From Acidobacteriota bacterium (GTDB lineage: Bacteria > Acidobacteriota > UBA6911 > RPQK01 > CBDAPI01): a stretch of 64,000 nt of DNA. The translations under genes were made by a program, and so were the position numbers. Positions 40,314 to 57,332 of this stretch are shown piece after piece. The stretch spans positions 64,651-128,650 of the forward strand of contig CBDBGQ010000051.1 of the NCBI GenBank assembly GCA_965205345.1, read 5' to 3'. The first letter of the stretch is position 1. Each line of letters begins with the position of its first letter. The notes under the pieces are model-generated. The model was given only the letters and a program-made list of their open reading frames with translations. It ran no database searches and had not been told where the DNA came from.

Positions 40314-40478
40314 CTAGTGCACTGTCCGGAAAGTTCCCGCCGCTACTTCGGGCGTCTTTTCGCCGACAGCTTTGTTGCGCTACCTCGAAAGACTCCCGGC
40401 ATTCCTGCGTCGCGCGCCTCACTGACGACGAAAATCCATCCCGAATTAACGACGCGAACTTCCCGGACAGTACACTAG
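40314..40478. mobile_element. MITE copy 1 (165 bp), 20-bp terminal inverted repeats, flanked by CTAG
   Basis: Starts CTAGTGCACTGTCCGGAAAGTTC and ends GAACTTCCCGGACAGTACACTAG; about 95% identical to the copies at 53350..53527 and 57155..57332. Confidence 0.8.
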
Positions 40479-41011
40479 CAGTCCGTGGTGGAAGTGATCA
40501 GCTTCTCCGATATCGGGTCAAACAGGTAAGCCATCGGTCTTCGAATCCAGTACGGTCCTCGACCAGGGAACTTATCTCCTGGGACGAAAACTGCAGCTGC
40601 ATCGGAGCTACACGCGGATGCTTTACGTTGATCTCCAGGCCTTCAGCCGTGGGACTGATACTCACTTTCGCGTCCGAGCCGAGGTGAAACAACACAAACT
40701 GTCTCAGCTGTTTCAGGAATCGGCCGCGAGTCTGTCCGGCATCCATTTCGCTTCACAGTATCACCGCACGGCGCTCCCAAGTACAACTCTGCTTTGTTGC
40801 GGGTACCTCTCAGTTGGTAATCTTATTTCGATGCGCAGAGTCGGCTGGCCCACGGGGGTACTCCCATTCTTGAACACGATGCCGAAGCATCGCCTCCGCC
40901 TCTCTTCGCTTCGTCGCCTCGCAGGCCCTATCCGCAGAAGGTCGGCGGCTCAATGTGCTTCAGTTCCTCGTTGTATGTTGAAGGCAAAGTCAAACGAACC
41001 TAGAAAACGCA

Positions 41012-43213
41012 ATGAGCGAAGTGAATAAACCCTGCCGTATCCATAGATGGGAATACCTGGTCGTAGGCATCGCTTTGACGACTTCCACGCTGGGTCAGGA
41101 TCGAGCTCGCCTCGAGATCGTTTATCGAGGTCAGCCACTCGTCATTGAAGCCGACCGGATCGTCTCGGCAGACCCCACCATTGCCGAAGGGGATGTGGTT
41201 GTCACCTATGAAGACATCAGTCTCAGGACCGGACGCCTGATTTATCACCGAGACCGCCAGCTCGTGGTCGCGGAGGACGGGATCGAGGTGACTCAGGGCA
41301 TCCAGTGGCTGAAGGGCACGAACGGTGAGTTCAGGCTGGGTGACCGGACCGGATTCATTGACAACGCCGAAGGCTTTACCGATGACGAACTCTTCGTGAG
41401 GGCAAAACGTCTTCTCAAGACCGGACCCGACACCTATCAAGCTCAGGATGGTTTCCTGACGGCCTGTCAAGAGGCGGTCCCCAAATGGAGCTTTGCGGTC
41501 AAGAATGCCTCGCTGAGGGTCGGGGCCAGCGCCTCGGCAACTCACCCCATCCTGAAAATCAAACAAGTTCCAGTCTTCTACCTACCCTACTTGCGTGTCC
41601 CGGTCCGGCGAGATCAGCGCTCCACGGGATTCCTGCTGCCCTCAACCGGGACCTCCAGCAACAAGGGCCGGCGAATCACTCAAGGCTTCTACATCGTGCT
41701 GGGCCGGAGCGCAGATCTGCTGATTGAAGAGGACTATTTCTCGGAACGGGGTTTTGGCCACAGCTTCACGTTCCGGACACGGCCCAATCCCGACAGTTAC
41801 CTGTTCCTGAACGGTTATTCGATCGATGATCGGAAAGGCCAGGGAGGAGGGAGTTTCACCGGCACCGGCGAAACCAGATTCGGGGACGGCTACCGTCTGG
41901 TGGCTGACTTCAACCTGGTCAGTAACTTCGTGTTCCGCAGAGTCTTTTCGGACAGCTTCTACCTGGCGACCAGACCGACCGAGGCTTCCCACCTGTTCCT
42001 GACCCGAAACGCCGGACCCAGTTCCCTCAACCTCCGTCTCTCGCGCCAGGAAACGGTTTTCCCGAGGCGCAATGTTGTCAGCACCGCCGCTCCGGGCTTT
42101 CACTTCAGCCTCAACGGCATGCAGATCTCTCACCTTCCGATCTATTTCGCGTTGGACGCCCTGGCGGAAGGAGTCAGTCGAGCTGACAGCCAGATTGAGA
42201 CGCCCAGTCTCACCCAGCGCCTCGATCTCTATCCCAAGTTCTATTTCTCACTCGACCTGCCCCAGGGTCTCAAGCTGACTCCCCGGATCGGTGTGCGAGA
42301 GACCTTTTACAGCGACAGTCTGGAGCAGACAGAGAATGGGAGAAGAGTCACGTCTGACAACCTGAATCGAGAGTACTTTGATTTCACCTTGACCCTGGAT
42401 GGATGGGGTCTGTCGAAAATCTACCGGCAGGGGAGCAGTGGAGCTTTCAAACATCTGATTGAGCCCCTCTTTCGATATCATTATACCGCCGGCATCGACA
42501 ACTTCACGGAGACGATCCTTTTCGACGAGAATGATGCGATTGCCAACACCAACGAAGTCGAGTTTGGTCTGGTGAATCGCTTTTTTGTGCGTCGGCGATC
42601 CGGCAGTGGCTCCAGCACACGGGAATGGCTCTCTATCAAAGTAGCGCAAAAGTATTTTGCCGATCCGGACTTCGGAGGGGCCTTCCAGTCAGGCACTGTG
42701 AACCAGTTCTTTCCCCTCTATACGCTGACCGGCTTCCACTACGGGGCGATCCAGCGGCAGTTTTCGCCTCTGACCACTGTGGCCAGGATCACTCCGAGTC
42801 GTCGTTTGAGTTTCGACGTGCACAGCGACTACGACGTTGATTTCAACCGATTCCGCAACCTGGCCGTGACCGGTTTTCTGAACAAAGGACGCCTGGGCCT
42901 GGCAACCACTTATTTTCTGACCGAGGAACTGGAGACAGGGACCCGGAAGAACAACCAGCTCCAGGGATCGATTCGCTGGGGAAACTTCAGGAGGGGCCTC
43001 TCCTTCACAAACATATTCAGTTACGACACCCGCTCCAAGGCGCTGCTGAATCTGCGGGCAAGAGTGAACTATTTCTGGGACTGCTGCGGAGTGTCGGCCG
43101 AGTACCAGCGGCTCAACCTGGGACTGAGACAGGAACGGGAGGTCCGGTTCTCTTTCTTCCTCAAAGGCATTGGAGCCTTCGGGACCATCAGAAGACCGGA
43201 TTCCCTTTTCTAG
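41012..43213 (+). CDS. lptD: LPS-assembly outer-membrane protein LptD (OstA family)
   Basis: N-terminal OstA-like region; YLPY...R..RSTGFLLPS motif; long C-terminal beta-barrel-like region with alternating aromatic residues. Confidence 0.8.
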   Translation: MSEVNKPCRIHRWEYLVVGIALTTSTLGQDRARLEIVYRGQPLVIEADRIVSADPTIAEGDVVVTYEDISLRTGRLIYHRDRQLVVAEDGIEVTQGIQWLKGTNGEFRLGDRTGFIDNAEGFTDDELFVRAKRLLKTGPDTYQAQDGFLTACQEAVPKWSFAVKNASLRVGASASATHPILKIKQVPVFYLPYLRVPVRRDQRSTGFLLPSTGTSSNKGRRITQGFYIVLGRSADLLIEEDYFSERGFGHSFTFRTRPNPDSYLFLNGYSIDDRKGQGGGSFTGTGETRFGDGYRLVADFNLVSNFVFRRVFSDSFYLATRPTEASHLFLTRNAGPSSLNLRLSRQETVFPRRNVVSTAAPGFHFSLNGMQISHLPIYFALDALAEGVSRADSQIETPSLTQRLDLYPKFYFSLDLPQGLKLTPRIGVRETFYSDSLEQTENGRRVTSDNLNREYFDFTLTLDGWGLSKIYRQGSSGAFKHLIEPLFRYHYTAGIDNFTETILFDENDAIANTNEVEFGLVNRFFVRRRSGSGSSTREWLSIKVAQKYFADPDFGGAFQSGTVNQFFPLYTLTGFHYGAIQRQFSPLTTVARITPSRRLSFDVHSDYDVDFNRFRNLAVTGFLNKGRLGLATTYFLTEELETGTRKNNQLQGSIRWGNFRRGLSFTNIFSYDTRSKALLNLRARVNYFWDCCGVSAEYQRLNLGLRQEREVRFSFFLKGIGAFGTIRRPDSLF

Positions 43214-43219
43214 AACCAG

Positions 43220-43723
43220 ATGACGACGATTTTTCTCAGCCTGGGATCCAACCTGGGCGACCGGCTCAAAACCCTTCGCTCCGCCATCGAACTCCTGCGT
43301 GGGTCGAGGATAAGCACCTTCCGATGTTCGAGTGTCTACGAGACCGAGCCCGTTGAGTTCGGGGACCAGCCAGACTTCCTCAACATGGTTGTTGCCGCCC
43401 GCACTCCGCTGGGGCCCGGGGCTGTACTGGCAGCCTGTCAGGAGATCGAGCAGAGGCTGGGACGCCGAAGACCGGAAAAGGCCAGGACCATCGACATCGA
43501 CCTGCTTTACTATGGAACCATTGAACTCTCGACGGGAGATCTCGAATTGCCGCACCCCAGGCTGCATGAGCGACGGTTTGTGCTCGTTCCGCTCCAGGAG
43601 ATTGCTCCAGACTTTCTGGATCCGGTCCGGAATCAGACGATCGACTCTCTTTTGAAGCACTGCCCGGATCAATCTCGCGTCACCGAGTTTTCACGGGAAG
43701 TCGCGAGCCATGCTGAAGAATGA
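43220..43723 (+). CDS. folK: 2-amino-4-hydroxy-6-hydroxymethyldihydropteridine pyrophosphokinase
   Basis: IFLSLGSNLGDR start motif and HPRLHERRFVLVPL motif. Confidence 0.85.
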   Translation: MTTIFLSLGSNLGDRLKTLRSAIELLRGSRISTFRCSSVYETEPVEFGDQPDFLNMVVAARTPLGPGAVLAACQEIEQRLGRRRPEKARTIDIDLLYYGTIELSTGDLELPHPRLHERRFVLVPLQEIAPDFLDPVRNQTIDSLLKHCPDQSRVTEFSREVASHAEE

Positions 43724-56408: not shown

Positions 56409-56526
56409 ATAGTAGATTGATCCGAATTGTATCCTTGACCTATCCGTCCCCCTGGTACAACATGGTAAGAACAAACTTTTAACTTGTCTCGCTGGTACAA
56501 CGGCGAGGTCAAGGGGGGGCGTTCTA

Positions 56527-57135
56527 GTGCCCAAGGGATACTTCGAAGACTACTACGATGTCCTGCAAATCAATCCGAATGCCGACCAGGCAACGGTTCA
56601 GGGTGTCTACCGTCTGCTGGCCAAGCGGTACCACCCTGACAATCCCGAGTCGGGCGACGGTCGGCGCTTTCAGAGCCTTCGAGAAGCCTACCGCGTGCTT
56701 TCCGATCCCGAAAGGAGAGCTGAGTACGACGCAAGCTACGAAACTGCTCGTCAGGAGCAATGGAAGATCTTCGGCCAGGGCGAAGCATCCACGAGCATGG
56801 ACGACGACGAGAACATCAGAACGGCCATCCTCTCACTCCTCTATGTAGCTCGACGCCGCTACGTCGACGATCCAGGAATGGGACCAATTCATCTGGAAAA
56901 ATACCTGGGGTGTCCGGAAGAACATCTCGAATTCCATCTCTGGTACCTGAAAGAGAAGGGCTGGCTCATGAGAACCGACTCCGGGGGGTACGCAATTACA
57001 GTGGGCGGCGTGGACAAGGTGACCCAAAGCGTCGTGCTGCGGGCTGATCGTCTTCTCGGAGAGTCGGTCCGGGTTGACGGTGACTCGCCAGAGTCGGTCG
57101 TCGACCAGCTCCGTGTTTTGAAAGAGTCGGCCTGA
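56527..57135 (+). CDS. J-domain (DnaJ-like) protein
   Basis: GTG start; J-domain with HPD motif (YHPDNPESGD) in the N-terminal 70 aa. Confidence 0.7.
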   Translation: MPKGYFEDYYDVLQINPNADQATVQGVYRLLAKRYHPDNPESGDGRRFQSLREAYRVLSDPERRAEYDASYETARQEQWKIFGQGEASTSMDDDENIRTAILSLLYVARRRYVDDPGMGPIHLEKYLGCPEEHLEFHLWYLKEKGWLMRTDSGGYAITVGGVDKVTQSVVLRADRLLGESVRVDGDSPESVVDQLRVLKESA

Positions 57136-57154
57136 CCCCCATTTACTTCCACGT

Positions 57155-57332
57155 CTAGTGCACTGTCCGGAAAGTTCACGCGGCTACTTCGGGCGTCTTT
57201 TCGCCGACAGCTTTGTTGCGCTACCTCGAAATACTCCCGGCATTGCTGCGTCGCGCGCCTCACTGACGACGAAAATCCCCGAATTAACCCCGTCCCGAAT
57301 TAACCCCGCGAACTTCCCGGACAGTACACTAG
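57155..57332. mobile_element. MITE copy 3 (178 bp), flanked by CTAG; its last bases supply the fadD stop codon
   Basis: CTAGTGCACTGTCCGGAAAGTTC...GAACTTCCCGGACAGTACACTAG; the fadD TAG is the reverse complement of 57329..57331, inside the MITE terminus. Confidence 0.8.

Follow-up and report, generated by a model that had tools for sequence, protein, structure and literature searches.

What are the three short, near-identical repeats in a 64,000-nucleotide (nt) stretch of the Acidobacteriota bacterium contig CBDBGQ010000051.1, and what placed them there? All coordinates below refer to this whole stretch, hereafter the window. The repeats lie in the same orientation on the forward strand at positions 40314-40478 (copy 1, 165 bp including the tetranucleotide CTAG at each end, which is the commonest length in the family), 53350-53527 (copy 2, a 178-bp variant that is 13 bp longer) and 57155-57332 (copy 3, also 178 bp, with its right-hand CTAG at 57329-57332), and they are non-coding. 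Very probably, they are copies of a miniature inverted-repeat transposable element (MITE) derived from insertion sequences (IS) that belong to the IS630 family, mobilised in trans by a 1170-bp IS630-family IS and inserted by cut-and-paste into the TA within CTAG.

A first-pass annotation of the window had placed a MITE at these three positions, and alignment of the copies and a search for their terminus both recover the same elements. In the three-way alignment, similarity starts and stops exactly at CTAG on each side, and the flanks of copies 1-3 are unrelated. When up to three mismatches are allowed, the window contains five matches to the 20-nt terminus, compared with 0.00 expected from 100 dinucleotide-preserving shuffles. 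The CTAG noted earlier at both ends of every copy is present and belongs to the inverted repeat itself. The terminal inverted repeats (TIRs), described earlier as 20 bp long, are likewise present, but they are longer: the imperfect repeats of approximately 25 bp include CTAG (terminus sequence GTGCACTGTCCGGAAAGTTC), with near-perfect pairing over 25-27 nt and imperfect pairing through most of the remaining element. Copy 3 folds as DNA with -37.6 kcal/mol (z = -4.8). The internal 13-bp duplication said to separate the copies was also found, as copies 2 and 3 contain CCGAATTAACCCC twice, 16 bp apart, which is the source of their additional 13 bp relative to copy 1. This subterminal duplication, CCGAATTAACCCC(GTC)CCGAATTAACCCC on the forward strand, occupies 53474-53502 in copy 2 (repeats 53474-53486 and 53490-53502) and 57279-57307 in copy 3 (repeats 57279-57291 and 57295-57307), and doubles the motif GTTAAT (reverse strand), which has a subterminal position at either end of the 1170-bp IS as well. 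With a length below 300 bp, the element has no coding capacity of its own, and open reading frames (ORFs) crossing the copies are read-through artefacts from neighbouring genes. Discrete, multi-copy, non-coding and bounded by TIRs, it supports the original assignment as a MITE.

The family extends well beyond the window. A pattern scan with CTAGTGYRCTGTCCGGRAAGT over one genome per GTDB species retrieved at least 96 eight-kb blocks, all but one of them from eight metagenome-assembled genomes (MAGs) labelled "Acidobacteriota bacterium". BLAST searches of these blocks with copy 3 brought the number of full-length copies outside the window to at least 50, distributed over seven of the eight MAGs, so that the family is not confined to the three copies first noticed; together, the window and the 96 blocks contain at least 53 full-length copies with distinct flanks. 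MAGs CBDCBX and CBDFLV hold at least 18 and 17 of them, respectively, followed by OZ252114 (at least nine), CBDDCF (at least three), CBDBID (at least two) and OZ240092 (at least one). The flanks of the MAG copies all differ, and nearly all copies have CTAG at both ends. Among the matches listed, the spacing of facing termini peaks at 165 bp (43 pairs), with rarer spacings of 28, 53, 76, 169, 178-180 and approximately 256 bp. The shortest variants consist of ends only (L084:4304-4331, 28 bp; L040:4038-4090, 53 bp; L041:4260-4335, 76 bp), the variants of approximately 256 bp contain an extra internal segment (L038:6318-6573 and L075:489-745), and in L055 the right end is duplicated. Identity is approximately 95% within and between genomes alike and even along the element, and CBDDCF holds a subfamily that is 72-79% identical to the main family (72-75% for the copies used in the structure comparison below). 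Furthermore, some family elements adjoin one another with a common CTAG. The identity of approximately 95%, the deletion derivatives and longer variants, and the abutting elements are signs of a family that appears to be active, and activity may continue in the genome of the window. The only match outside Acidobacteriota among those listed, in a MAG labelled Vitreoscilla sp. (L091:2903-2962), covers 27 nt of the right end of the MITE (GCGCGAACTTCCCGGACAGCACACTAG), with neither a left end nor a transposase nearby; it could stem from horizontal transfer or incorrect binning of the contig, or be a fragment.

The termini of the MITE are also those of a complete IS. Among the matches listed, 12 TIR pairs lie exactly 1170 bp apart (e.g., L016:269-1438), and these elements contain a single ORF encoding a protein of 362 amino acids (aa). 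The protein matches the NCBIfam model NF033545 "IS630 family transposase" with 276 bits (cut-off 100) and the Pfam domains DDE_3 (88 bits), HTH_32 and HTH_29. The first-pass annotation had left the parent between the IS630/Tc1-mariner and IS5 groups, and these elements, with the same ends and an IS630-family transposase, single out IS630; a transposase gene bounded by the MITE's own TIRs thus exists in related MAGs. IS with MITE termini occur in at least four of the scanned MAGs, and tblastn searches added another three MAGs with intact variants, each of 1170 bp and with CTAG on both sides, at protein identities of 84% (CBDAPI), 83% (CBDFLV, locus L085) and 79% (CBDBHK). In addition, 1171-bp copies with the same ends and near-identical transposases were found in two ENA metagenome contigs, from samples that also contain close relatives of the window organism. 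The IS left end reads CTAGTG(C/T)ACTGTCCGG(A/G)AAGTTC and the right end is related. The left end of the IS is matched by each end of the MITE over 23-34 nt; on the right side of the MITE, the match reaches as far as the subterminal GTTAAT (approximately 34 nt). MITEs and IS coexist in CBDFLV, which carries at least 17 MITEs and the intact IS at L085, and in CBDDCF. The partner transposase belongs to a very large IS630 clade (7365 proteins at E <= 1e-80), in which its closest named relatives, annotated as "IS630 family transposase" in Chloroflexi, Thermoanaerobaculia and Geopseudomonas, are only approximately 63-66% identical.

IS630 reportedly prefers TA within 5'-CTAG-3', going by the title of a 1991 study by Tenzen and Ohtsubo. 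Nearly all copies of the present family are flanked by TA within CTAG. At most imperfect sites, the TA is intact and the change affects a single outer base, giving ATAG or TTAG as the left flank or CTAA or CTAC as the right flank, which fits a TA duplication. Elements of the IS630 family use TA as their target and duplicate it in the process, as described for IS630 and ISY100 (PMC2170065). By analogy with this family, the copies would have been inserted at TA within CTAG with duplication of the TA. The 1170-bp IS, the putative parent, circulates in the same group of uncultured Acidobacteriota, and its transposase, with two N-terminal HTH domains and a DDE_3 catalytic domain, would recognise the termini of approximately 25 bp that it shares with the MITE. 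The enzyme would then free the element by double-strand cuts and join its 3' ends to TA, with a strong preference for TA in 5'-CTAG-3'. Repair would duplicate the TA and yield C-TA-[GTG...CAC]-TA-G, in which the first base (G) and the last base (C) of the element complete CTAG on both sides. Under this model, the element proper of copy 1 would span 40317-40475 (GTG...CAC), with TA at 40315-40316 and 40476-40477.

Close relatives differ in whether they carry the insertions. Contigs L097, L178 and L179, which derive from other samples and encode identical FadD or LptD-like proteins, represent the same strain and carry the copies (copy 1 in L178 and L179, copy 2 in the sister-strain contig L097). 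In L180-L185 (FadD 89-97% identical), no MITE follows fadD and the whole segment containing copy 2 is missing, and in L186-L189 (GpmI 96% and 84% identical), no MITE lies between gpmI and an 82-aa ORF. As copies 1 and 3 are present in the same strain and absent from these relatives, the sequence comparison indicates that they are insertions that vary among close lineages.

Several points weigh against an IS630-derived MITE moved in this way. As the first-pass annotation had stated, no autonomous partner with these ends lies in the window: tblastn detected no IS630 transposase there, and the partner is seen in related MAGs and metagenomes. The internal 110 bp of the MITE have no similarity to the IS, and a simple internal deletion from the IS is not supported by the sequence. 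Mobilisation in trans would follow by analogy with the IS630 family. Furthermore, relatives free of copies 1 and 3 were found, but a clean empty allele from which to read the target site duplication was not obtained in any of four ways. The joined flanks of all copies, searched by BLAST against all collected loci, gave two matches that were too diverged or complicated by another IS end; looking up proteins identical to those of fadD and the LptD-like gene led only to MITE-carrying contigs of the same strain; a metagenome scan with FadD returned only relatives of up to 70% identity; and graded FadD and GpmI homologues led to the relatives without copies, but with additional junction differences. 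In L186, the site of copy 1 is short of approximately 13 nt of flank as well, among them the CTAG and the outer portion of a neighbouring IS end. Around copy 3, the differences comprise a replacement of 46 nt in the spacer between fadD and Vut_1 and a last fadD codon that reads AAC in the window versus AAG in relatives. The single cross-genome pair among the MAG loci, with L053 filled and L013 empty, shows 82% identity, which is too diverged to read a duplication. As filled sites by themselves do not separate a 2-bp TA from a 4-bp CTAG duplication, the two are indistinguishable at these loci.

Alternatively, the repeat might primarily be a functional structured element under selection, such as a small RNA, a terminator or mRNA-stabilising hairpin or a protein-binding site, with mobility secondary or extinct, which we consider unlikely. 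This would account for the long and stable hairpin fold, although any element with TIRs folds as a hairpin. In the RNAalifold consensus of 12 diverse copies, the two halves of the element pair over 47 pairs, and compensatory changes occur at four of these 47 pairs when the main family is compared with the CBDDCF subfamily (72-75% identical); however, these changes amount to approximately one event per pair between two lineages. They suggest, weakly, that the foldback may be maintained, which would fit the needs of transposition and a function of the RNA or DNA equally. Conservation does not vary along the element, and copies from different species are as similar as copies from one species, but even, high identity is also expected from a recent burst of a master copy. 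In 14 of 98 junctions, the junction TAG terminates an ORF spanning 200 codons or more, compared with 3.4% of control frames, which places the hairpin directly after genes; yet a bias towards stop codons follows from the CTAG target. In addition, a search of the whole window against Rfam 15 gave no match at the gathering threshold, and promoter and terminator scans detected neither a sigma-70-like promoter nor an intrinsic terminator in or beside copies 1 and 3.

A combination of mobility and function is conceivable but doubtful, namely that a CTAG-seeking family prefers C-TAG stop codons, thereby puts a conserved, compensated hairpin right after genes and could set mRNA 3' ends, and that, separately, the palindrome CTAGTGCACTAG is a footprint of excision. 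This 12-nt palindrome lies at positions 8527-8538 of L180, L181 and L182, between the convergent 3' ends of the Vut_1 and DnaJ genes, at the same site in all three contigs and at a locus that is unique in 935 kb of Acidobacteriota sequence. It can be read as TA+GTG+CAC+TA, i.e., the terminal 3 nt of each MITE or IS end between two TA dinucleotides. As a lead, the palindrome might be a Tc1/mariner-style excision footprint, based on one locus for which no ancestral filled site is known; if true, it would provide direct evidence of cut-and-paste excision and end-joining repair in Acidobacteriota.

An origin from the IS5/IS1182 group is very unlikely. Here, the window's own IS1182/IS5-like element would move the MITE and duplicate 4 bp (CTAG) or 3 bp at the target. 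This IS (4688-6142, 1455 bp) encodes a 452-aa DDE_Tnp_1/DUF772 transposase, is flanked by CTAG and repeatedly adjoins the MITE. A solo 22-nt end of it (CTAGCAGTCCGTGGTGGAAGTG; 40475-40496, forward strand) shares with copy 1 the CTAG at the right end of that copy, and the element also adjoins MITE copies in L045, L021, L064 and L073; a second solo 22-nt end lies at 26138-26159. Filled sites are compatible with a 4-bp CTAG duplication, and IS5-derived MITEs that duplicate CTAG are known, e.g., MITEPsy1 (PMC3189936). However, the IS1182/IS5-like element ends in CAGCCCGTGGTGGAAGT, which bears no relation to the ends of the MITE, the IS630-type IS matches the MITE ends over 23-34 nt, and the abutment is accounted for by both elements targeting and regenerating CTAG. 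On this mismatch of the TIRs, a derivation from IS5/IS1182 was rejected. CTAG is scarce in the window, with 45 sites versus 88-240 expected depending on the model, and the competitors for it include the IS1182/IS5-like element, its solo end, a further repeat with ends ACCCAAAATAAG and the MITE. The further repeat, with ends of the form ...TTATTTTGGG(A/T)-CTAG and CTAG-ACCCAAAATAAG..., adjoins many MITE copies in MAG loci such as L029, L046, L063, L086, L022, L021, L054 and L077 and appears to be a third CTAG-targeting family.

A segmental duplication that left the three copies as remnants, or an artefact of assembly, as the heavy rearrangement of 46453-57154 relative to relatives might suggest, is scarcely credible and was rejected, since the flanks of copies 1-3 and of at least 50 others are unrelated right up to CTAG and thus do not form part of a larger duplicated region, these copies recur in assemblies made independently from other samples, and the rearrangement junction by copy 3 maps to microhomology outside the MITE.

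The IS630-derived MITE has left different marks on the neighbouring genes. The gene for 2,3-bisphosphoglycerate-independent phosphoglycerate mutase (gpmI; 38647-40278, reverse strand) starts at 40278 (TTG) or 40248 (GTG), and the conserved GpmI N-terminus PVVLVVLDGWG follows either start. Gene callers chose GTG 40248 (533 aa), which is why a look-up of the TTG-start protein returned no match. Copy 1 sits 36-66 nt upstream of the real start, where the region of the 82-aa ORF continues in relatives, and separates gpmI from its former upstream DNA as a passive insertion. Read-through into copy 1 produces a spurious 591-aa ORF (38647-40422), so the false N-terminal extension of gpmI attributed earlier to this copy is real as an annotation artefact. 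Two other proposed effects did not hold. Copy 3 had been credited with supplying the stop codon of fadD (long-chain acyl-CoA ligase, AMP-binding; 57329-59014, reverse strand), but the TAG, the complement of 57329-57331 within the right-hand CTAG of copy 3, is the target site itself. Close relatives end fadD with ...AAG TAG at the same codon, and more distant orthologues end within a few residues; copy 3 therefore brings no new stop. Judging from these alignments, it landed on a C-TAG stop codon and regenerated it, leaving the end of the reading frame unchanged. The same pattern recurs across the family, with approximately a quarter of its copies located on stop codons of genes. Copy 2, in turn, was said to abut a cysteine-rich gene, and a gap of 57 nt separates it from the end of the cysteine-rich ORF at 52790-53293. 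This ORF may be the out-of-frame continuation of 52122-52622; the pair (52122-53293) occupies two frames and has no Pfam match. Copy 2 also adjoins a truncated wecB fragment (53641-53964), which encodes the C-terminal part of a UDP-GlcNAc 2-epimerase (Epimerase_2, profile positions 243-346 of 347). The wecB fragment and the cysteine-rich ORF pair look like gene remnants in an inserted segment.

The surroundings of copies 2 and 3 contain further mobile elements and traces of rearrangement. Relative to L180-L185, the region 46453-57154 is rearranged: gene order in relatives is fadD-Vut_1-DnaJ-(PGI)-S26, whereas the window has Vut_1 and DnaJ in exchanged positions but uninverted, PGI is reduced to a 5' fragment of approximately 100 nt (at about 54830-54930), and approximately 7.6 kb of extra DNA including copy 2 lie between S26 and Vut_1. 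Copies 2 and 3 were considered as mediators of the Vut_1/DnaJ swap and rejected, as the junction by copy 3 lies at the microhomology GTCAkGCCG. An IS256-family pair of 1332 bp (13267-14598 and 55077-56408, 100% identical) encodes a 407-aa Mutator-type transposase (NF033543, 359 bits), and its copy at 55077-56408 is absent from the otherwise 99.7-99.95% identical L097, which represents a clean empty site for this IS256-family element. An IS1380-like element (47575-49361; 421-aa ORF, DDE_Tnp_1_4, 30-nt TIRs) is located within a segment that has inverted repeats of 38 nt at its borders (46453-46490 and 49855-49892) and otherwise encodes a cytochrome-c-like protein. Furthermore, a two-ORF element of the IS3 family (HTH_Tnp_1 and rve) was identified at 20298-21931, with copies that are 99.9% identical in CBDBID (L066) and approximately 90% identical in CBDFLV and CBDAPI (L086, L046, L011 and L009).

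Among known systems, the closest analogue of the present MITE is RUP of Streptococcus pneumoniae with its partner IS630-Spn1 (PMC2229807). RUP is a non-coding element of 107 bp whose TIRs match an IS630-family IS and which is proposed to be mobilised by IS630-Spn1; it inserts at TA and is present in approximately 100 copies, often beside or inside other IS elements (PMC2229807). The present MITE is likewise short, non-coding and multi-copy, has TIRs matching an IS630-family IS and a TA target, and is often found beside other IS. In contrast to RUP, it has another sequence, a length of 165-178 bp, a host of another phylum and an extended CTAG target, both of its ends resemble the left end of the IS, and it spans several species at approximately 95% identity. 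The partner IS resembles IS630 (Shigella sonnei) and ISY100 (Synechocystis) in its size of approximately 1.17 kb, its single ORF with HTH-HTH and DDE_3 domains, its TIRs of approximately 25 bp and its TA flanks, and it shares the CTAG preference reported for IS630, whereas its transposase sets it apart from named IS630 members by the low identity given above. Stowaway and other eukaryotic MITEs derived from Tc1/mariner elements also target TA, borrow their TIRs from a mariner-like element and form internal deletion series. Unlike the present MITE, Stowaway-type MITEs have eukaryotic hosts and no known CTAG preference. MITEPsy1 of Pseudomonas syringae is a small MITE at CTAG as well, but it is 100 bp long, and its parent is the IS5-family ISPsy2 with a 4-bp duplication (PMC3189936). 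The literature searched yielded no description of the present element or of a MITE in this group of Acidobacteriota.

The element is thus a new family of a well-known kind and involves no new transposition mechanism, and the finding leaves the understanding of transposition unchanged. In a genome with few CTAG sites, this target directs several transposon families to a small shared set of positions, many of which are stop codons. For annotation, the element creates false N-terminal extensions, as in gpmI, and false ORFs. It also marks sites of unstable gene order in long-read Acidobacteriota MAGs and, together with its 1170-bp IS630 partner, offers presence/absence markers for tracking strains and species in this uncultured group.

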